This document shows positions 29,576 through 41,627 of a DNA stretch of 64,000 nucleotides, piece by piece. This DNA comes from Elsinoe ampelina. Lineage: Eukaryota. The position numbers and the translations under genes were made by a program. The stretch spans positions 2,124,919 through 2,188,918 of the forward strand of contig ML992503.1 in assembly GCA_010093995.1 (NCBI GenBank), in the 5' to 3' direction. Position 1 is the first letter of the stretch, and each line of letters starts with the position of its first letter. The notes under the pieces were generated by a model that was not told the DNA's origin, made no database searches, and saw only the letters and a list, made by a program, of their open reading frames with translations.

Positions 29576-32500
29576 TCAAGCGGTTCCCTCCCTGCGTTGC
29601 CTCTCCTTCTCGCCTCTCGCCAGCTCAGCTCCGACGCCCAGCGCATAGACAAGTGCAGCGCTAGTAGCACCGACACTGAATGCAAACTTGACTCTCCTCT
29701 TCCAGGACGCTCTTTTCTCATGGCGCCTGGACCGACCCCTGTGGTGTTCGTGATGCTTCCCTGATCCGGAGAAGACTGGCTCCTGCCTGTGCACACGAGG
29801 GTAGTGGCGATAGTATACACCGTCCTTCACGAGAAGCTCCTCGGACTCTTCGCTTTGCTTTGGATCTGCCTCCGCAGGTTTCTCGATAGGGAAGACTGGA
29901 TCATGATTGACGAAGCCAGTGGGAGAGGCATAGTTACCGGTTGCCGTTTCGGTGTGATAGCGAACAGTCCCATCAACAGGGTTGACGGTGCTGGTGGCGG
30001 ACGTTGACTTCTGTGTGACCTTTGTAGCGACTTCTTCGGCAGTATTTGAGCCAGTTGAATGCACCTTGCGGAGTACCAACAAGTTCCCAGAAGCGTGTAT
30101 AGCTTGATAACCTTCTTTCTGCAGGCCGGCAAAATGAGTGACGAAACGAGTGGGCTCAGACACACTTGAGAGCGCTTGTGGTACTGAAATGGGGACCTCG
30201 TTGTCAGCAAAGCGGGAGGTTGTTGAGACGATCTGCATGGAATCGGAAGACCAAGAGTTGTTAGGATCGTAGGCCAGAATCTTGTAGGACGATGGCTCTG
30301 CCCACTGGAAGCCGGAAGGAAGTGCAGACTCGTGAAGTCCAGACGCATTCTGCTGGTTGTCTAGCTTGGCTGAAAGCTCTCTATTCTCGTTGCTGAGTTG
30401 CTGACGGGTCCTGAGAAGCTTCGATTGTTGCCTCATATGCTGCCTTACTTGGGCTTCCAGATTGCCGTTCTCCATTTTCAACTCGTCCTGTTTCGATGTT
30501 GCGCGCTTGACCTGTGACTCGAGGAACTTGACTCTATCCTTGAGCTCCTTTTGCACCTTGTCATAGTCGCTGTGCTGCATGAGACCGTTCTCCTTGCAGA
30601 TCCTTACAACTTCTGAGACTAGCTCGTCCTCTACTTTGGATGATGTGCGAAGGGTGTTGTTCTGCTTGTACCATTTGTCGCTCTTGGCAAATCTGGCAAC
30701 GTTCGTGTCCATATCTCCTTCACCCTTGGTGATAATATCATGGGCATGACGGGTCTCGTACATGCTCATGACTTGCTTCTGAGTCGAGATTTCTGAATCG
30801 AGCATCTCTCTAGCAGCAGCCTGCTTCTGCACCTTCGCCCCATCGACTGGCCTGGTTCGAGGAACGTAACCTTTGCCAGCCAAGAACTGTAAGCTGGGTG
30901 GTAGTAGGAGAGCTGGATCTTTGGCTTGAGTCTTGGGTAGATTATTCATGGCTTTCAACTCCTCTTCAAGTGTGGGACGTCGACCCTTCGAACATGCCTC
31001 TCTCTCCTTCTCATAGCAGGATTGGAGGCCAACAGCTTTGTTGGTATATCCGTCTTCATGCTGCCCCGCCAGGCCTGACTGTGCTTGTGCCGCAACCTGA
31101 GCATCGTGCTCCATCTCATCGGCGAGAGCAGGTCTGATGCCCTTGGCGACTTCTTCGCGCTCTTTTGCATAGGTGCTTTGCAGTCCAATCGGCTCCTTGG
31201 TGTATCCGTCGACCGACTCAGTATTCTCCAAAGGCTTGTTCGCGATCTCGGAGGCAATGTCTGGACGCACCTGGTCGGCAACGGCTTTCCGCTCGTTCGC
31301 GTAGCTGTTCTGCAATCCGATGGGCTGTGTGGTGTAACCATCATTTATCAGGATCTCTTCACCGGGCTTTCTGGAAATTTCTTCAGCAATATCTGGCCTG
31401 TCGTTCTTGGCTACCGCTTCGCGTTCCTGAGCAAAGTTGCTTTGGAGTCCGATCGGGTCAGTGGAATACCCGTCGTTAGTCGGTATGTCTTCCGAGGGTT
31501 TGTTAGCAATCTCCTGGGCGATGTCTGGTCTGGCTCGCTTGAGGACGGCCCTACGCTCGTTTGCGTAGTTGCTTTGAAGACCGATGGGTCTGGTAGTATA
31601 GCCGTCGTTGACTTGCGTATCTTGCAGAGTCTTGCTGGCAATTTCTTCAGCAATATCTGGCCTGCTTTGCTTCGACACGGCCTCGCGCTCGTTGGCGTAG
31701 TTGCTTTGTAGACCAATGGGCTTCATGGAGTAGCCGTCTGCAGGTACGAAATCCTCAGAGCCCTTATTCACAATCTCCTCGGCAAGAGTGGGCCGGTCTT
31801 GATTCTCGACGGCCTTCCTCTCGTTAGAAAATGTCTTCTGGAGTCCTACGGGCTTGTTCGTGTAGCCGTCGTCTTGGTAAGTTTCTTGAACCCTGTTTGC
31901 GATCTCCTGCTCCAGCCCGGGTCGTCCTTCCTGTGCAACTGCCTGGACCTCATTTGCGTAGGTCTTCTGCAGTCCAAGAGGTTCTTGCGAATAGCCATCT
32001 GAAGAGGCAAGACCTTCGAACGCCTTGTTTGAGATTTCCTGGGCCAGAGGAGTCTGCTTTTGATCTGCACATGCCTTCTGCTCTTGTCTGAAGGACGTCT
32101 GCATGCCCATCGGCTTGTCAGAGTAGCCATCAAGCATGGCCAGAGCCTTGCGGATCTTCTTCTGGGCAGCCGGCGTTTCACTGTACATTCTGTTCAAAGC
32201 TGGCTGGATCGTTGTTTCTCCTCGCTGTTTGGTGATTTGCAAACTTGACTTTGCCTTGGACTCGGCAAGCTGCTGCCTAGCATCTTCAATTTGCGAGGTA
32301 ATTTCCTTCCACCGCCTGTCAAAGTCGTTGCTCAGGACACTCCGATCTGTCTTGATGGACTGAGTCGTGCCTTCGCGAGTCCGCAAGGTCTTGCCCATGG
32401 AAGCGCGGATGGCATCAGCGGTCATGAGATCAACGTCATCCTTGGGTAAAATTGAGAGCTTCTCGGCAGTCGACGATTTCTCTTCCACTGGCTTGAGCTG

Positions 32501-33481
32501 AGGCGCGGCTGCCGGAGCAGACCTTGCCTTGGATGCGCGGACCAAAGTCGAAGCTGGACGAAGATCTCCTACAAAACGCTTTACTGGAAGATCAACAGCC
32601 ATGTTGCCTTGACCTGCATGTTTGGACGCCTGAGTGTGGCCCGTAGGATCAAGGGCGTTCGCCGTTGTGCTCGATGGTTTTGAAGGGATCATACGTCCAG
32701 AGATGGGATCATACTCCAAGTGCTTCACTTCGTTAGACGTTGAGTCCCAGCTGGACGAATTCGCCTGAATGACAGGAGCCTTTCCAGATCCTTTGGTAGA
32801 AGAGTAGGAGAAGGATGAGGTCTTCGCGAACGACTTGGCATGTCGTGGTCGGGCCGCATCTTGGGCGGAAGGATCGTGGTTCGAGGCGGTTGTAGGACTT
32901 GCTTCATGGGCCACACTAGCGGACTCGGACTCGCCTTTAGCCCAAGAAGGTATGAGTGGGCCCCACATGGTCGGTGACCAGAATGGATCGAATGGCTTGC
33001 CGAAGACAGCTCGGTATGGATTGGCATCCACATAATCCTTGACAGCGTCCATTTGCTTCCTCCAGCGCTTCTCACCAGGAGACAGCTCATAATCGTCCTC
33101 GGCCTTTGTTTTCTTCCTCACTTCTTCCTCGATCTGAGGCCATCTCTTGAGATTGGATCTGCTCCAGTGACTAGCTGCGCGAGAACCGAGGACTCGGCTG
33201 AAAGGGAGTGGCATTTGCCATTTGGATCGTCGGCGTAGAGCATCACGGAGAGCGGCGCGGACTCGCTGGTGACGCTTGCGGTGGTACTCGTGATATTCGG
33301 GATCGAGGTGCGAATTCCAGGAGTATTCCCTTTGGCGAAAGAAAGTACGTTTCTGCTGTGAAGTTGGCACAGTGGTGTTGGGAATGGTCAGCTGCGTAGC
33401 GAAGGCAATCGCTCGGACGGAAGTAATCGAGGGCCTTCTGAGCCCAGACGAAGAGCTCGCCCGGAGCTGAGGTGGTAGCAT
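29576..33481 (-). CDS. Uncharacterised 1301-aa protein: presequence-like N-terminus, nine ~44-aa repeats, coiled coil, C-terminal TM
   Basis: Single uninterrupted ORF with repeats DGY-x3-P-x-GLQ, YKILAYDP and TGNYASPTGFVN blocks, and a hydrophobic segment near the C-terminus. Confidence 0.85.
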   Translation of the reverse strand: MLPPQLRASSSSGLRRPSITSVRAIAFATQLTIPNTTVPTSQQKRTFFRQREYSWNSHLDPEYHEYHRKRHQRVRAALRDALRRRSKWQMPLPFSRVLGSRAASHWSRSNLKRWPQIEEEVRKKTKAEDDYELSPGEKRWRKQMDAVKDYVDANPYRAVFGKPFDPFWSPTMWGPLIPSWAKGESESASVAHEASPTTASNHDPSAQDAARPRHAKSFAKTSSFSYSSTKGSGKAPVIQANSSSWDSTSNEVKHLEYDPISGRMIPSKPSSTTANALDPTGHTQASKHAGQGNMAVDLPVKRFVGDLRPASTLVRASKARSAPAAAPQLKPVEEKSSTAEKLSILPKDDVDLMTADAIRASMGKTLRTREGTTQSIKTDRSVLSNDFDRRWKEITSQIEDARQQLAESKAKSSLQITKQRGETTIQPALNRMYSETPAAQKKIRKALAMLDGYSDKPMGMQTSFRQEQKACADQKQTPLAQEISNKAFEGLASSDGYSQEPLGLQKTYANEVQAVAQEGRPGLEQEIANRVQETYQDDGYTNKPVGLQKTFSNERKAVENQDRPTLAEEIVNKGSEDFVPADGYSMKPIGLQSNYANEREAVSKQSRPDIAEEIASKTLQDTQVNDGYTTRPIGLQSNYANERRAVLKRARPDIAQEIANKPSEDIPTNDGYSTDPIGLQSNFAQEREAVAKNDRPDIAEEISRKPGEEILINDGYTTQPIGLQNSYANERKAVADQVRPDIASEIANKPLENTESVDGYTKEPIGLQSTYAKEREEVAKGIRPALADEMEHDAQVAAQAQSGLAGQHEDGYTNKAVGLQSCYEKEREACSKGRRPTLEEELKAMNNLPKTQAKDPALLLPPSLQFLAGKGYVPRTRPVDGAKVQKQAAAREMLDSEISTQKQVMSMYETRHAHDIITKGEGDMDTNVARFAKSDKWYKQNNTLRTSSKVEDELVSEVVRICKENGLMQHSDYDKVQKELKDRVKFLESQVKRATSKQDELKMENGNLEAQVRQHMRQQSKLLRTRQQLSNENRELSAKLDNQQNASGLHESALPSGFQWAEPSSYKILAYDPNNSWSSDSMQIVSTTSRFADNEVPISVPQALSSVSEPTRFVTHFAGLQKEGYQAIHASGNLLVLRKVHSTGSNTAEEVATKVTQKSTSATSTVNPVDGTVRYHTETATGNYASPTGFVNHDPVFPIEKPAEADPKQSEESEELLVKDGVYYRHYPRVHRQEPVFSGSGKHHEHHRGRSRRHEKRASWKRRVKFAFSVGATSAALVYALGVGAELARGEKERQRREGTA
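30960..32131 (-). repeat. Nine degenerate ~132-bp (44-aa) coding tandem repeats
   Basis: Consensus DGY[ST]xxP[IV]GLQxx[YF]xxERxAVxxxxRPx[IL]AxEIxxK read directly from the translation. Confidence 0.9.
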
Positions 33482-33836
33482 GACGACTAGACAGCGTTAG
33501 ATCACATCGAAGACCGATCGTAGAGCAAATTGTGAAGACGGCGGTTGTGCAGCAGTGAGGGAGGAGGTGAGGTTGCCGTTGCAGCTGGCAGTGAGCATTC
33601 CAAACGCGGGGTTGATCGACACGTGCGGCTGCCTGGACTTGTTGCTTACAGGAAATGGTGCTCAGCTAGCACGAGATTATCATGGGAGATCAGGCAAGTC
33701 TTGAGTGGTGACTTGCTCCCATTCACCGAACCAGTCGCCAGCGATTCGACAGATGGACACAGAGGGGGATGAGAGTGACAGACCAAATGCATTCGGGGTC
33801 TCTCGTCTTATCGGGCCAACGCGGGGAAAGGGAAAG

Positions 33837-33978
33837 TGTTGTAATGGAAGGCTGGTACAGCTTCTCTGGTACTGAAGAACTGGTACTGATGAGTCAGCGC
33901 ACGCACAGTAGATAAATCGGTTATTGTAACTCTCTAAATGAAACACACGTCTCTCGATCCGATTTGCTAGTTATAACA
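33837..33978 (+). repeat. 5' LTR (142 bp)
   Basis: TGTTGTAA...TTATAACA, direct repeat of 40347-40488 with 11 transition differences by manual alignment. Confidence 0.95.
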
Positions 33979-33990
33979 GGTTATGAGCCC
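33979..33990 (+). promoter_or_regulatory. Primer binding site GGTTATGAGCCC (half-tRNA-iMet type, as in Ty5/copia)
   Basis: Immediately follows the 5' LTR and lacks the TGG start of a full-tRNA 3'-end PBS. Confidence 0.75.
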
Positions 33991-34202
33991 AGCGCTTCTA
34001 TAAAAGCACTTAAAGCTATAGCAAATTAAGTATGTTATTATTAAAAGGATTACTAAGCCGCCTATACTAAATTCTAGACTAGCTACATTAAGATAAACAC
34101 TTGTAGTAGCCCGTATTAACCCTTTAATTAAACGGTTTAAACGGCTTAAACAAGCTAATTACATTAATTAAATTAATAGGCCTTTAGCTAATTACTATTA
34201 TT

Positions 34203-37200
34203 ATGTCTAGATTAGCAAAAATGCTCGAGACTTAGATTCTTAAGAGAGAAAGCAACTATAATACTTAGAGATCAACCCTTAAGGTAGCCCTCCTTAAAAA
34301 GGATATACTTAGATATACAATTTATAACATCGACTAGATACTAGTAGTTATAAAGCCTAAAGAACTAGCCCTAGATACTAGTAAAGGCACTAAGGCAATC
34401 TATAAGGTTAGGAACAAGACCTAGTACAAGAATAATAGAATTGCTTATAGTATTATTATAATAAGGATTTATAAATCTATTAGACCTTACTATAGTATAA
34501 CTTAGAAGACTTTAAAGGAACTTCTAGATACTATTAAAGCTATATTTAAACCTATTGTTTTATATAAGCTATATATAGCTATCTATAACCTTAATAAGGT
34601 AATTATAACGAGTTATAACACCTAAAGGTACTATAAAGATTTTATAAAGTACTATTATTAATATACTATTACTATAGAGTAAAGAGTAAGCACTATTAGT
34701 GCTAAACTAGATAAGTTTAGGCTCTCTCTATACTATATTAAGACTATGTTTATTATAGAAATAGAGACTACTAAATAGTTAAGGAGCTAGAGATCTAGCC
34801 TTAACTATAAGAAAAGTCTTAAAGAGATAATAGACTCTCTTAGAATATAGAAGCCCCTATATAATAGAAGAACTAATCTAAACTCTATTTATAGAGTAGC
34901 TAGTTATATTAAGGATTAATACACTTAGTACACTTATTATATCTACTCTAATATAGATTACTTTAAGTAGTACCCTAAGAAAGTACTAAAGAGTTAGAGT
35001 AAAAGGAATAATAAAGATAGGTTAAATAATAAAGACATAAAGGCTAAAGGTAAAGGTAACAAGTTAAAGACTAAGAAAGTTAGAGGTTAAGTAGCTATTA
35101 AAGAATCTAGAGAACCTACTAAGGTAGGTAAATTAGATAAACGCTCTAATACTAATATTAATATTATTATACTAGTCTATAGAGTAGTAGTAGTATCTAT
35201 ATTATTATCTTTAACCTATAGTAAGAATAGAGCAATCTATAACTCTAGTGCGTTAAGGCACTTTATTAAAGACAGGTTATAGTTCTTAACAATTAAGGTA
35301 TATAAAGGTGTTCTTAAATTTAAATAAGCTATTAGTATAAAGAAGCTACTTAATATAGAAGTAGGTATAGTTAGGCTTACCCTAACTAATAGTAAAGGCA
35401 AGAAGTTAATTATTAAGCTTTATAATTGTATATACTTACTATTATTACTAAACACCCTTATATCTAATCTTTAGAATAAAGAGGAACTTAATATCTCTAT
35501 AGTTAGCAAATCCTTAATAAAGAATAGAAAGGAAGTTAGCCTTATTAAACACTTTAAAAGAGTTAAATAGCTTAAGAACTTTAAAGTATATAAGTCTTAG
35601 AACTATAAGGAATTACCTACAAGGCTAAAACTATAGAAGCTATAGACTATAAGAGTAAATCTAGCTATTATAACTACTTAAAAGCTAACATTAGAAAGAT
35701 AGTACTAGAGGTTAAGCTATGTTAGTAACACTGTTCTCTCCCTTACTAAAAGTTAAGCTATTAGATTAGAAGAACTTTAAATATTAGATCTTAGCTACTA
35801 TAAACTATATACTATATTAAAGGCATAGAGAGTAGTATTAAGGGAACTAAGGGATATACTAAAATGCTTACTAGATAAGCTCTATCTAGACCTTATTAGT
35901 CCTATTAAACTATAGTTAAGTAAGAGCTATAAATATCTTCTCCTTATAATATATAGTAAGAGTAAGTATAAGTTTGTTACTATTCTCTTCCTTAAGAGTA
36001 ATATACTAGCAGTAATTAAACTTATCTATATAAGGAACAAAATAGCCTATAATAAGCTTTTATTTATCTTTATCTCTAATAGAGGAGGTAAATTTAGGAA
36101 CTATAAACTAGTAATAGCTATTTATCTTAAAGGGTAAAGATAGAACATCTCTACACCTAATACTTAATACTAGAATAGTGAATCTAAGGCCACTAACAAA
36201 GTAGTTATTCTTAGAATAAGGTATATCTTTGTTAATTATAGAGCACCCCTTAAACTCTAGTATATAGTTATAGAGTTTATAATCTACATTAGTAATAGGA
36301 TTACCTATACTAAAACTAAGAAGATCCCTATATAAGAGCTTAGAAAGAATCTTCTTAATAATAATAAGCTAGTCTTATTAACTTATATTAGATGCTTCGG
36401 CTATAGAGCCTATATCTATAACTAACATGTTTCTAAATTATACAAATTCTAAGCTAGAGTACTACTTAGTTAGCATATTAGTATATAGAACAACTTAACA
36501 ACTAATTACCTTATCTAGATACTCTATTAGTATTATACTTAGTAAGCCTAGAAGGGAAAGATTATTATATTACTCTATATAACATTTAATAAGAATATAG
36601 TCTATAAAGACTAGGTAATATAAGTTATTAAATAGCTATATATCCTATAGGTATAATAACCTAAGGCTTTATAGCTTTAGGAGGAGCAGACATTTAGTAG
36701 TAATTATAATTAAGACTATAGCTATAACTAACTACCCTTTAGTTATAAGAATCTATAAACTACTTAGGCTAAATAACCTTAAGTTAAACAACTAACATCT
36801 AACTACCTTTCTATCCCTAGATATAAATAACAATTATCTACCCCTATTAAAGAATAGAAGGAGTAATACTAATATCCTAAACTAGATCCTTAACCTATTA
36901 ATAAATAGAGAGAGCAACTTAATGTTACTAATTATAAAGGTAAAGACCTTATAACACTACTACCTAAAGTTATTAGTGAACTATATTTAACCTTTAATCC
37001 TATAGTTAATGTTAATTAACTACTAATATATATATAGAATAAGGATGTTAACTTCCTTATTATACTATTTAACATATAACCTCTAACTAGTAAAAGGAAG
37101 AGATCTCTCTTACTATAAGAAACTATTAGAAGGTCCCTTAGAATATATCGCTAGATTAATTATAAGAAACTTAATAATAGTAAGATTATTAGATCTATAG

Positions 37201-37919
37201 CTATTAATTTTAAGCTAGACCTATAAATAGTAAGAGATATACTATTCTCTTCTAAAGGTTATTACTAGTAAGCTATAATAGAGACAGAGTAGAAGGCTCT
37301 AACTAACTCTAAAACCTTTTTAATTATTAAGAAATCTTAGGCACTAAGAGGTGTTAGGCTAATAACAGGTAAATAGGTCTTTAAGACTAAGAGGCTTACT
37401 AATAGTAAAGTTGAAAGATATAAGGCTCGTTAGACTATAAGGAGCTTTACTTAAAGAGTAGATATTAACTTTGTTAGAACCTTTATACTAACACTAAGAG
37501 CTAAAACTAGAAGAGTAATCCTTGTATATGCTCTTTATTATAACTAGGTTATTATAACAGTAGATATAGTTACTATATTCCTTAGACTAGATATTAATAT
37601 TAAGAACTATATCTCCTACCTAGAAGGCGTACTAATTCCTAGTAAATAGGACAAGCTTATTATTCTTATAAAGGGCTTATATAGGCTTAAGTAAGCTACT
37701 ACCCTCTAGTATAACGCTATAGTTAAGGCACTTCTATTACTTAGCTTTAACAAATCCTATAGTAATACCTATCTCTTTATTAACAAGTATTATATAGTTC
37801 TTATATATGTTAATAACTTTAGAATTATTACTACTAGGTAGAAGTATATAGATAAGCTAGTTAAAGATCTTTATCTTAAGTTTCTAATAAAGATTATAAA
37901 CTTAAACCTCTTCCTTAGT
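34203..37919 (+). pseudogene. RIP-inactivated gag-pol polyprotein
   Basis: De-RIPed motifs: gag L.GESNYDTW (~34240), Zn knuckle (~34920), protease IYDSGASRH (~35235), pre-integrase WHxRLxH/CxxC (35700-35810), integrase HLDLIGP, SDGGGEF and QNG.SE, RT KWVFK..RYKAR (~37371-37430), and YVDD relic TATGTTAATAAC (37806-37817). Confidence 0.9.
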
Positions 37920-38832
37920 NNNNNNNNNNNNNNNNNNNNNNNNNNNNNNNNNNNNNNNNNNNNNNNNNNNNNNNNNNNNNNNNNNNNNNNNNNNNNNNNN
38001 NNNNNNNNNNNNNNNNNNNNNNNNNNNNNNNNNNNNNNNNNNNNNNNNNNNNNNNNNNNNNNNNNNNNNNNNNNNNNNNNNNNNNNNNNNNNNNNNNNNN
38101 NNNNNNNNNNNNNNNNNNNNNNNNNNNNNNNNNNNNNNNNNNNNNNNNNNNNNNNNNNNNNNNNNNNNNNNNNNNNNNNNNNNNNNNNNNNNNNNNNNNN
38201 NNNNNNNNNNNNNNNNNNNNNNNNNNNNNNNNNNNNNNNNNNNNNNNNNNNNNNNNNNNNNNNNNNNNNNNNNNNNNNNNNNNNNNNNNNNNNNNNNNNN
38301 NNNNNNNNNNNNNNNNNNNNNNNNNNNNNNNNNNNNNNNNNNNNNNNNNNNNNNNNNNNNNNNNNNNNNNNNNNNNNNNNNNNNNNNNNNNNNNNNNNNN
38401 NNNNNNNNNNNNNNNNNNNNNNNNNNNNNNNNNNNNNNNNNNNNNNNNNNNNNNNNNNNNNNNNNNNNNNNNNNNNNNNNNNNNNNNNNNNNNNNNNNNN
38501 NNNNNNNNNNNNNNNNNNNNNNNNNNNNNNNNNNNNNNNNNNNNNNNNNNNNNNNNNNNNNNNNNNNNNNNNNNNNNNNNNNNNNNNNNNNNNNNNNNNN
38601 NNNNNNNNNNNNNNNNNNNNNNNNNNNNNNNNNNNNNNNNNNNNNNNNNNNNNNNNNNNNNNNNNNNNNNNNNNNNNNNNNNNNNNNNNNNNNNNNNNNN
38701 NNNNNNNNNNNNNNNNNNNGAGAGAAAGAAAAAGCTATTATAACTCTATTACTAGCTACTTATACCTAAGCTATATCTACTACTTAGTACTATTATTACC
38801 TTTAATAACCTCTACCTATCCCCTACCTCTAA

Positions 38833-39986
38833 TTACTTCTTTATAGAAGGAGAACCCCTTCCCTTATTACTACTAGTAGACCTTATAGAAGTGTTAGATC
38901 TAGACCTACTATACCTTATTAGTACTAGGCCTAGTATAAAGGCATAAATAGGAGAAAGCTAACTAGAGTAGCTAGTAGCTATAATCCTTATAAGCTCTAC
39001 TATATAGTTTGTTACTATAGTAGCTAAGTTATAAACCTTAGTAGTAGTTAAGTTAGTAGGATCTACAAAGTTTGTAGGGACTACTATAAAGTAGTAAGAG
39101 TTAGTATAAGTTATTAAGGTATTAACTACACCTAATAATACCGCTAGTATATAGGCCCTTAGTAAGAACCTCTAAGGCAAAGTACTACTAAAAGAGACAG
39201 ACCTTAGGAGCTCTATTAGTAGGTGTATTAGGCTATATAGAATAGGCTAAGTAATGACTCTTAAGCTACTTAAGGTCCTTATAGGTTTAGGAGAGCTAAT
39301 AGGCCTTAGAGTTAAAGTATAGTTAGCTAAGAAATATCTAGTATATTAGTTGCTATAAGTATAGCAAGTGTAGGCCTTATTAAGCTAACTAGGCAAAGTA
39401 ATGCACTTACTAAACTTACTACCCCTGCCCTTACTCTAATTATTACTAGGGTTAGATCTCTAACACTTAGTATAGCAATTAGTACTATAGTAGACTACTC
39501 TACTAGTAGCACTAGAAGCTATTAAAGTAGTAGAGTAGTTAGTAGATCTAGTAAGGTTAACTTGCTTAGTTAGATCCTTAACTAGAATAGAATTAGTAAC
39601 TACTAGGTGTACACTATAGGTACTAAAGGCCTAGACTACTATAGACCTTTAGATAGGATATAAGTTAGTATAGTTATAATAACTAATTATCCTAAGCCTA
39701 AGGAGAGTATTCTAGATTATGTCGGCTAACTATTAAGTCAAAGTCTAAGTTAATTAAGCTATTAATGTTAGCTTGTGCTATTAATGCTTTATAGCTACTT
39801 ACTAAGAGTATTAAGACAAGTAATTAGTCTTATAGTAGTATTATAATTAACATTAGAAGTACTAGGTAACCTTAATAAAGGATTTCTCTTCTTACTACTA
39901 CCTCCGCTACCTAGTAAACTACTTAGAGCACTAGCACTAGTAGTAATACTACTAATGCCTAGCTATTACTATACTATAGCACTTAT
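38833..39986 (-). pseudogene. RIP-inactivated antisense accessory gene inside the Copia element; ~370 codons, one intron (39759-39802), DUF3716-like Cys6 domain
   Basis: One continuous frame interrupted only by TAA/TAG, with intron GTAAGT...GCTAAC...TAG in the correct phase and a Cys cluster at 39330-39480. Confidence 0.7.
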
Positions 39987-40336
39987 GTTATAAGTGTTAT
40001 TAATGTAGTATAGTAAGAAGGTAAAAGTATTATATAAAAGAAAAGGCTACTACTATAAGTGTAATAAAGGAAAGAGAAATTATAAAGAGGCTAGTTAGAT
40101 ACTTATATCTCTTTAATTAAGACTTATAAGCTAGTCTATTTACATAAATAATAGCTGCCTAGCTATTATTAATAGTTACTATTGTTGCTAGCAATTATAA
40201 GCTAAACTAATAGTGAATTCTTACTAATAATTAGCTAACACTAACAATTATAAGCAATTATAAAGAGATAAAGTAATAAGCTAATTACTTTACTTACATG
40301 TAATAGGATAGTTCTCTAGCTTTAGTAATCTATACT

Positions 40337-40346
40337 AGAGGGGGAG
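40337..40346 (+). promoter_or_regulatory. Polypurine tract AGAGGGGGAG
   Basis: Directly abuts the 3' LTR. Confidence 0.85.
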
Positions 40347-40488
40347 TGTTATAATAGAAGGCTAGTACAGCTTCTCTAGTACTAAAGAACTGGTACTAAT
40401 AAGTTAGCGCACGCACAGTAGATAAATCGGTTATTGTAACTCTCTGAATAAAACACACGTCTCTCGATCCGATTTGCTAGTTACAACA
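40347..40488 (+). repeat. 3' LTR (142 bp)
   Basis: TGTTATAA...TTACAACA followed by the GAAAG TSD. Confidence 0.95.
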
Positions 40489-40620
40489 GAAAGCAGGCAG
40501 CACGGGCCCTGATCCACCTGTCCCGAGCCAGAGTGTGGGGGCCGGCGGGATATTAGGTAGGATGCACACCGAGACGGTCATCTGCTTGTTTCACTCCAAG
40601 TCGTGCAGGAGAAAAGGTGA

Positions 40621-41388
40621 TCATTGTATGTACAATACCCTCTTGACAAAGGCAACTAGATCATCCACGCCTTGAGGCTCATTCAGCCAATGGCCCCCAT
40701 CAACATACTCACGCCATTCCACCTCCGCCCCAAGCTTCCCCAGAAGCTCACACAACCGCCTGCCATTGCTCACAGGTATAACCTCATCATCCTCACAATG
40801 CCCCAAGAAGACTGGTAGTGATCGCGTTTCTCCTACCACCCCAGCCTGCCCATTCGTCAACCCCATCACCCGTGCCACCCTCTCCTTCCCCTCCCTCTCC
40901 CCCTCCACAATCTTCTCCACCTCCTCACCAAGAGCAAACCACGTACTCAACCCAACAAACCCTACACAACCCGTCCTCAACACAGCATGCACCCCCACCG
41001 CCGCCCCCTGACTCATCCCAGCAACCAACACCTTCTCCCTCCCCACCACCGCCACCTCCCGCTCGATAATCCCCACCACCTCCCCAACACTGGTGCTCAA
41101 CTCCACCACTTGCTCCCTCCACCTCTCATCCGGGTTCTGCACATCCCACATGTCGAACCACTGCGTCATGTCGCAATCGAAGCGGGCGCTGCGTAGCGTG
41201 GGCGCCGAGGGGAATACCCATCGCACGCCTGGTAGGAGTTGAGGCAGGGTGAGGTCGTCGCTCGCTTGTGATTCGAAGATTTCAGAGGCGAATTCTGTTG
41301 CCGTCGAGTCCTTGCCGTGGAGGAAGATGACGGTGTGTGTGTGTTCGGCGAGGGGTGCGACGACGTGCGTCGTGGTTCGTGGTGACAT
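40621..41388 (-). CDS. Phospholipase/carboxylesterase (acyl-protein thioesterase-like alpha/beta hydrolase)
   Basis: HTHTVIFLHG, WVFPSAP, QWFD, nucleophile GMSQG, D in DDEVIP and catalytic H in GGHW. Confidence 0.9.
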   Translation of the reverse strand: MSPRTTTHVVAPLAEHTHTVIFLHGKDSTATEFASEIFESQASDDLTLPQLLPGVRWVFPSAPTLRSARFDCDMTQWFDMWDVQNPDERWREQVVELSTSVGEVVGIIEREVAVVGREKVLVAGMSQGAAVGVHAVLRTGCVGFVGLSTWFALGEEVEKIVEGEREGKERVARVMGLTNGQAGVVGETRSLPVFLGHCEDDEVIPVSNGRRLCELLGKLGAEVEWREYVDGGHWLNEPQGVDDLVAFVKRVLYIQ

Positions 41389-41627
41389 GTCGATGATGGC
41401 TTTGCCTTGTGGCGGGTCTGGTAGTAATTTGGTAAGAAATGTGGTGAGTACACTCTGGTCAGCAGAATTTCAGCTATATATGCTCGAGGTGAGTCACGAA
41501 GCTTGCTTCTTTGCAAAAAGGAAATGCATCTTTCTGGTAGTTTTGATTGCTTTTTGATTTTGTAAAATATGGCTCTTTTCGGCTTCCGTATTACGCCGTC
41601 CCGATGTGGTAGTTTCTATATTACATT

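Follow-up and report, generated by a model that had tools for sequence, protein, structure and literature searches.

Probable relic of an antisense accessory gene downstream of pol in a mutated Ty1/Copia retrotransposon of Elsinoe ampelina

Can a fungal Ty1/Copia retrotransposon carry, in addition to gag-pol, a gene of its own on the opposite strand? This question is raised by a 64,000-nt stretch of the Elsinoe ampelina genome (GenBank assembly GCA_010093995.1, contig ML992503.1, forward-strand positions 2,124,919 to 2,188,918). We refer to the whole of this stretch as the window and give all positions in its own numbering. The window contains an element with long terminal repeats (LTRs) at 33837-40488, and a preliminary description, made from the letters alone, had proposed that an intron-containing gene for a six-cysteine, DUF3716-like protein is hidden on the minus strand of this element. 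The element proves to be a member of a Ty1/Copia family with many copies, all function of which repeat-induced point mutation (RIP) has destroyed. Our analysis makes it probable that the spacer between its pol and 3' LTR holds the relic of an antisense accessory gene, for whose protein product we offer tentative proposals only.

The proposed gene and the spacer upstream of it consist of the following parts.

38833-39758, minus strand: exon 2 of the antisense gene relic, with codons at 38836-39758 followed by a TAA stop at 38835-38833
39325-39498, minus strand: segment rich in codons of the Cys/Tyr/His class, a putative zinc-binding domain (residues 78-135), with surviving TGY codons at 39477, 39465, 39405 and 39366
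39759-39802, minus strand: candidate 44-nt phase-1 intron, GTAAGT...GCTAAC...TAG, the sole strict match in the element, at the frame change
39803-39986, minus strand: candidate exon 1, possibly starting from an ATG that RIP has turned into the ATA at 39986; 55 open codons come after three TAA/TAG codons
39987-40336, minus strand: non-coding spacer upstream of the antisense gene, with 13-20 stops per 124 codons in all six frames, none of them labelled sense by the codon model described below

The positions reported earlier were all found as described, namely ATA at 39986-39984, GTAAGT from 39802 with GCTAAC inside and TAG ending the 44 nt at 39759, and TAA at 38835-38833. It is also true that the frame is broken only by TAA and TAG, but this tells almost nothing. 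RIP converts Cys, His, Gln and Trp codons to TAN and first-position G to A, and since it makes TGA into TAA in any frame of the element, every frame is expected to look this way. The unspliced single-frame translation of 38833-39986 contains 54 TAA/TAG codons and one TGA, because this reading leaves the frame past the intron.

The density of stops is far more informative. The minus frame at 38836-39729 has 10 stops in 298 codons, compared with 27, 30, 45, 55 and 64 in the other five frames, and 300-nt windows across 38790-39540 show 2-5 stops per 100 codons for one minus frame, which is the range of the true pol frame. Among 5000 dinucleotide shuffles, the best frame had 29.1 stops on average (standard deviation 3.0, minimum 17), and none came down to 10 or fewer. 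A control pol segment of equal length has 14 stops, a value reached by one of 2000 shuffles. Single open runs are a poor statistic, as the element has 12 stop-free runs of at least 55 codons. The best plus frame of the region contains 27 stops in 298 codons; two runs on the plus strand (64 and 63 codons) are free of stops, and the low-stop stretches of this strand, 39331-39522 and 38756-38944, are in different frames. By similarity comparison within the window, the 3' region is neither an inverted copy of gag-pol nor one of a neighbouring host gene.

Stop density alone leaves the strand unfixed, because in the pol region the antisense frame has 16 stops per 300 codons, hardly more than the 14 of the true frame. 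To assign the strand, we used a codon model trained on 17 host open reading frames (ORFs) after simulated 85% RIP. This model labelled correctly all 12 frames of two pol segments, with margins of +70.1 and +28.4 bits, and labelled the minus frame of the region as sense (+10.2 bits) and the codon-aligned plus frame as "antisense-0". The support for the minus strand as the coding strand is good but not overwhelming. Taken together, stop density, shuffles and the host-trained model bear out the earlier claim of an ancestral protein-coding frame that is oriented antisense and lies between pol and the polypurine tract (PPT).

The intron-like signal is located exactly where the frame changes. In 11,136 strand-bases of element sequence, the strict pattern GTAAGT..CTAAC..YAG has a single match (minus strand, 39802-39759), and this is the point where minus frame 2 (39965-39800, one stop in 55 codons) yields to minus frame 0. 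With 39802-39759 excised, minus frame 2 (39986-39803) continues in phase 1 into minus frame 0 (39758-38836). Strict motifs occur in simulated RIPed host DNA at a rate of 0.023 per kb (53 in 2.29 Mb). The 1627-nt region itself is rich in TA, AG and GT, and 424 of its 2000 shuffles hold at least one strict motif somewhere; requiring in addition the right position (about 100 of 1600 nt) and the right phase (one in three), we estimate the chance of a coincidence at roughly 0.1-0.5%. On these sequence grounds, we lean towards taking the 44-nt span for a genuine intron.

The host element is a Ty1/Copia retrotransposon, because its low-stop plus frame matches the reverse transcriptase (RT) family RVT_2. 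The PF07727 profile gave 64.0 bits (E=2.1e-17, cut-off 31.6) on the plus frame of 36900-37919 read with X, and 60.7 bits (E=2.1e-16) in a second scan. The Pfam family rve was not detected on 35700-36400 or 36301-36900, and integrase-core-like motifs at about 35860-36200, in the pol frame, were seen by eye only. The remaining anatomy, that is, the LTR pair, a 5-bp target-site duplication, the primer-binding site and the PPT, agrees with the Copia identity given in the preliminary description. Direct repeat D1 (151 nt, 91% identity) bounds the element, and its alignment resolves into 142-nt LTRs with TG...CA ends. The primer-binding site we take to be an initiator-tRNA half-site; in copia and Ty5, a fragment of the initiator-tRNA-Met anticodon stem-loop serves as the primer. 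The features of the element are as follows.

33832-33836, no strand: left target-site duplication, GAAAG; the same five bases follow the 3' LTR
33837-40488, plus strand: the whole Ty1/Copia LTR retrotransposon copy, recognised from LTRs, target-site duplication, primer-binding site, PPT and RVT_2
33837-33978, plus strand: 5' LTR, 142 nt, TG...CA, from direct repeat D1 and alignment with the 3' LTR
33979-33991, plus strand: primer-binding site, GGTTATGAGCCCA, with CTCATAA, as in a CAT-anticodon loop, in its reverse complement
34140-37919, plus strand: gag-pol ruined by RIP, a single low-stop plus frame
~37347-37895, plus strand: RVT_2 reverse transcriptase, by PF07727 profile match
37920-38719, no strand: run of exactly 800 N, concealing the end of the RT, RNase H and the end of pol
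38721-38846, plus strand: possible C-terminal tail of pol, 41 open codons to a TAG at 38844-38846, provided that they are in phase with pol across the N run
38829-38838, plus strand: left copy of a 10-bp direct repeat, CTAATTACTT, at the edge of a 1452-bp module
40281-40290, plus strand: right copy of the 10-bp direct repeat, CTAATTACTT, identical to the left copy
40337-40346, plus strand: PPT, AGAGGGGGAG, read directly, adjoining the 3' LTR
40347-40488, plus strand: 3' LTR, by alignment with the 5' LTR
40489-40493, no strand: right target-site duplication, GAAAG, matching the left copy

To see how widely the 3' region is shared, we surveyed contigs at least 80% alike to the element in two DNA runs, X1 and X2, which come from one sample of organism A and are not independent. 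The element was covered by 11,633 contigs in X1 and 4,939 in X2, most of them at least 95% alike. The depth summed over contigs, which is not a copy number, was 72,245-113,148 (X1) and 43,045-88,828 (X2) at 38750-40324, and 66,826-124,065 and 57,173-112,944, respectively, over gag-pol. No insertions or deletions at a share of at least 5% were found in the X1 and X2 contigs anywhere across the element. The 3' region is thus clearly as abundant as pol and is carried by the family at large, and since its depth matches that of pol, the concern that the segment might be a one-off insertion is answered. Another concern was a mis-join at the N run. Contigs of both X1 and X2 extend into this run from either side, with loose ends at 37919 and 38720, and those from 37919 continue, by our own reading, as RIPed sequence in the pol frame. 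Therefore, the N run is a gap in a continuous element and not a mis-join; moreover, 38720-40346 runs ungapped into a matching 3' LTR with the same target-site duplication, and the depth is similar on both sides.

Two other runs touch on the element. Run X3, which bears the label of organism B, gave a 207-nt contig on 39376-39582 with six differences from the Cys-rich part of the ORF, while its other pieces match over 18-43 nt only. Run X4, only guessed to be RNA, gave nine contigs, all at LTR edges (33832-33883 and 40420-40489) and none internal, which makes it uninformative on expression; these contigs run on into unrelated sequence and may represent solo LTRs or the LTRs of insertions elsewhere.

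The signature of RIP, as reported earlier, is evident from both indices. TpA/ApT is 1.84-2.85 in the element and 0.48-0.51 in the flanks, and (CpA+TpG)/(ApC+GpT) is 0.21-0.25 and 1.32, respectively. Per kb, the element has 206.7 TpA and 26.0 CpA+TpG, compared with 28.0 and 147.4 in the flanks, so that about four fifths of the RIP targets have been lost. If 28 TpA per kb, as in the flanks, is taken for the background level, RIP accounts for about 1000 of the 1151 TpA. The two LTRs differ at 13 positions, and all 13 are transitions between CpA/TpG and TpA. Among the copies, the unmutated letter reaches at least 5% of the depth at 75 places only (34 A>G and 41 T>C, run X1), and RIP looks saturated, being fixed at most sites in nearly all family copies. 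As 75 places stand against some 1000 TpA, a consensus of the copies cannot undo RIP in this genome. The antisense gene is now dead, every frame being full of stops.

The predicted product includes a putative Cys-rich segment. According to the preliminary description, two Cys of a six-Cys motif survive. In fact, the motif region has four TGY codons, which are all those surviving in the 298-codon read, at residues 85, 89, 109 and 122, that is, within 38 residues. The TGY, TAY and CAY codons make up 12 of the 58 codons at residues 78-135 and 19 of 240 elsewhere (Fisher p=0.0068), which provides modest internal evidence for a Cys-rich domain. The first Cys pair was described as C-x2-C; the DNA as written gives C-x3-C (C-Y-T-K-C), and C-x2-C results only if the TAT at residue 86 stands for Cys. 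Counting surviving and possible Cys at residues 85/86, 89, 109, 120, 122/123 and 132, the distance between the second and the third is 19 residues. The fungal Zn2Cys6 binuclear cluster has the spacing C-x2-C-x6-C-x5-12-C-x2-C-x6-8-C. Hence "Cys6" in the sense of such a cluster does not fit, and no Zn_clus match was found in the Pfam scans.

The DUF3716 pattern consists of C-x2-C, F-x2-C, A-C-x2-C-x-Y and R-C, and the Cys spacing here can be made to fit it after reversal of RIP. The fit demands that three or four Tyr codons be read as Cys and that the loop past the first pair be longer than in this pattern. A pattern of this kind matches once here and never in about 2.25 million control codons; since it was fitted after the fact, the absence of control matches is not an independent test. 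A less strict six-Cys pattern turns up frequently (0.3 per 1000 codons). We would propose DUF3716 membership of the antisense product only tentatively, and would not be surprised to see it fail. The nuclear role suggested earlier, as a regulator or an anti-silencing factor, would be pure conjecture by analogy.

Several observations weigh against an antisense, spliced gene with such a product. The strand margin of the host-trained model is modest, 10.2 bits compared with 70.1 and 28.4 for pol, and the other four frames of the region are not coherently labelled by it. A codon model trained on pol leaves the strand undecided, with scores of -12.6 bits (minus frame) and -11.3 bits (aligned plus frame). 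For the host-trained model, exon 1 is indistinguishable from non-coding sequence (-0.1 bits), and the gene may instead have lacked an intron and begun at an ATA near 39720. As to the family, summed contig depth does not measure copy number and X1 and X2 represent the same sample; moreover, one contig in each of these runs, with depths of 198 and 189, respectively, joins 38839 to 40292 and so lacks the 1452-bp block.

The homology searches were also negative. In Pfam, DUF3716 is PF12511, with 59 positions and a cut-off of 22 bits. Neither DUF3716 nor any other family was found in any of the six frames at E<=10, nor any family after masking TAG and TAY as X, both tests having almost no power on RIPed DNA for so short a domain, in which several putative Cys would now read Tyr; short segments yielded no DUF3716 and only Gram_pos_anchor at E=0.27, which is noise. 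A phmmer search of the stop-masked ORF against 1.84 billion representatives gave one match, a 612-aa repeat protein aligned in nine weak stretches, which we dismissed as junk. Word-index searches found no matches for the Cys region (245 candidates) or the whole ORF (1463 candidates), and a PDB search of the ORF gave one noise match (E=0.14). The word-index search also found nothing for the RT region (1638 candidates), and as this is a true domain, such searches fail on RIPed queries. Similarly, as a control of Pfam sensitivity, RVT_2 alone was recovered in the element, and the gag, protease and integrase segments gave no families. Because the same searches miss most true Copia domains of the element, their null results are weak evidence. 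Beyond the ORF, there was no DUF3716 among the 144 ORFs of the window, and a search with the PF12511 profile gave no matches, with none in the 14 control genomes. A RIP-degenerate pattern of 39384-39430 had no matches in metagenome contigs and none in viral contigs, an LTR pattern had none in metagenome contigs, and for the RT translation none of the 86 pattern matches in viral contigs was confirmed.

These points have to be set against other explanations of the same region. The 1452-bp block at 38839-40291 might be a passenger, either a host gene that was captured or a fragment from a different mobile element, inserted into the founder in reverse orientation and amplified passively, with no role for the retrotransposon. 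The block, which comprises the antisense gene and its upstream spacer, is bracketed by the perfect 10-bp direct repeat, and the joint of 38839 to 40292 restores a minimal Copia layout of pol end, short spacer and PPT; DUF3716 genes, should they be relevant here, are known as host genes and from a DNA transposon, as far as the excerpts of PMC10776026 and PMC8232023 show. This joined form, however, has depths of just 198 and 189, compared with about 70,000-110,000 over the block, and looks like a rare microhomology deletion, although the block may still have been acquired as a unit. No terminal inverted repeats were found at the block ends, and none of the host genes of the window resembles the block. 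According to PMC7264820, an ORF found in all or most copies counts as retained, and an ORF found in one or a few copies counts as transduced. On balance, we regard passive carriage as improbable.

Much less credible is the explanation that there was no gene at all, and that the scarcity of stops in the minus frame merely reflects the composition left by RIP or is the antisense shadow of a sense ORF, such as an extension of pol or an env-like ORF3. It draws on the pairing of low-stop frames in pol (16 and 14 stops in 300 codons), on the failure of the pol-trained model to separate the strands, and on the open plus-strand runs of 64 and 63 codons. Yet 0 of 5000 shuffles came down to 10 stops, the best plus frame has 27 stops in 298 codons with the low-stop plus stretches falling into different frames, the host-trained model takes the minus frame for the sense one, and the sole strict intron motif lies on the minus strand; this makes the explanation very unlikely. 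Finally, the sequence to the right of the N run could be foreign to the element, the scaffold having joined unrelated pieces. The gap is exactly 800 N long and none of the listed contigs spans it, but 38720-40346 continues into a 3' LTR that matches the 5' LTR, the same 5-bp duplication lies outside both, the depth is similar to the left and to the right of the gap, and the X1 and X2 loose ends from 37919 read on in the pol frame and are RIPed. We give an assembly artefact hardly any credence.

If the region is indeed the relic of an antisense accessory gene, it would have formed a second gene of about 369 codons, convergent with pol, probably with two exons around the 44-nt intron. Its product would have had an N-terminus that is Ser/Thr-rich now and Gly/Ala-rich with RIP reversed, and a short basic patch; a middle part of about 55 residues, rich in present or possible Cys or His codons and most simply read as a zinc-binding module; and a C-terminal tail of about 170 residues. 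Transcription may have started from the gene's own promoter, within the approximately 350 nt that separate the PPT from the ORF, or else from the 3' LTR acting in the reverse direction. Being antisense to the genomic RNA of the element, the intron would never be removed from the replication template and would be copied into each new insertion, and so we propose that it persists through retrotransposition for this reason. The analogy of other antisense ORFs located between pol and the 3' LTR would suggest a nuclear protein that acted on nucleic acid and may have assisted or regulated the element. The fullest version, a fungal Ty1/Copia lineage with a conserved spliced antisense gene for a DUF3716-type zinc-binding nuclear protein that, bound to chromatin or to the DNA or RNA of the element, governs the element's expression, integration or evasion of genome defence, seems rather unlikely.

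Antisense genes are known from other LTR elements. The plant retrotransposons concerned are mostly Ty3/Gypsy, and the antisense gene HBZ of human T-cell leukaemia virus type 1 (HTLV-1) is spliced. For the published comparisons below we rely on excerpts of the cited sources. Antisense ORFs that lie between pol and the 3' LTR and are present in most copies form a recognised class, aORF-3R, for which no function is known; examples are gene23 of maize Grande, rice RIRE2, Silene Retand (with a TRP28 domain), Phaseolus PvRetro13 (SMC) and the fungal Boty of Botrytis and Sclerotinia (PMC7264820). Some aORF-3R products are nuclear or have domains of the DNA-binding type (PMC7264820, PMC11963269), and the Grande antisense ORF has its own upstream promoter (PMC7264820). 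The plant aORF-3R resemble our ORF in position, orientation and presence in most copies, and differ from it in their domains (TRP28, SMC or none) and hosts. Introns are not mentioned for plant aORF-3R in PMC11963269, where the word is absent from the text, whereas our ORF has a candidate intron. As for the present element, it has a frame opposite to gag-pol between pol and the 3' LTR, as ancestral capacity only, and family-wide depth.

The closest fungal case is brtn of Boty (2011, Virology), like ours an extra gene antisense to gag-pol in a fungal LTR retrotransposon (PMC7264820, PMC8365987). Boty, which we know from citations only, is a Ty3/Gypsy element, unlike the present Ty1/Copia one. 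Therefore, the earlier remark that this organisation is undescribed was too broad for the class, which exists in plant elements and in the fungal Gypsy element Boty, while for fungal Ty1/Copia no report of an antisense gene was found in searches of open-access text. In HTLV-1 and its relatives, HBZ is likewise antisense and near the 3' end, with an antisense promoter in or near the 3' LTR (PMC7264820); these are vertebrate retroviruses and the proteins are unrelated to ours. DUF3716 is a fungal domain without known function; one protein with it is the orthologue of a Neurospora protein that binds telomeric sequence, and the member NCU05718 is cited as such a protein (PMC10776026). In addition, REP9, a class II transposon of Zymoseptoria tritici of the IS3EU type, carries the DUF3716 genes REP9-1 and REP9-2 (PMC8232023). 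REP9 is a DNA transposon and our element a retrotransposon, and the two would share DUF3716 cargo only if the DUF3716 reading were right.

The gene is dead in this genome, and therefore its value lies in the lead it offers rather than in the locus itself. With a fungal Ty1/Copia example, the antisense-ORF class would no longer be confined to plant elements and to Boty, a Gypsy element of fungi, and a retained antisense intron would mark expression separate from the genomic RNA. If the Cys-rich segment were DUF3716, this orphan fungal domain would occur in transposons of two unrelated classes, which would hint at an accessory role in nucleic-acid binding; together with REP9, it would make DUF3716 a recurrent transposon accessory domain with a testable function.

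The rest of the window is ordinary ascomycete gene space with a GC content of 49-63%. It includes genes for Lon protease, ATG22, glutaminase A, DnaJ, BRO1/ALIX, Vps36, a Cys/Met pyridoxal-phosphate (PLP) enzyme, MFE-2 and the HRQ1 helicase. The element corresponds to the lone AT-rich island of the window, at about 34000-40300, with a GC content of 25-32%, and GC is back at the host level already inside the 3' LTR. Within the element, the plus strand of 36390-36840 (about 450 nt, the integrase-RT linker) has 3-6 stops per 100 codons in a frame shifted by one and 9-18 in the pol frame; there is no family-wide indel with a share of at least 5% in this interval, and a double frameshift shared from the founder or a Gln/Trp-rich linker is possible. 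On the left, the element is adjoined by a 1306-codon open frame on the minus strand (29579-33496), which matches no Pfam family at E<=1e-5. On the right, about 135 nt from the element, lies a minus-strand ORF (40624-41469) of the Abhydrolase_2 family (phospholipase/carboxylesterase).

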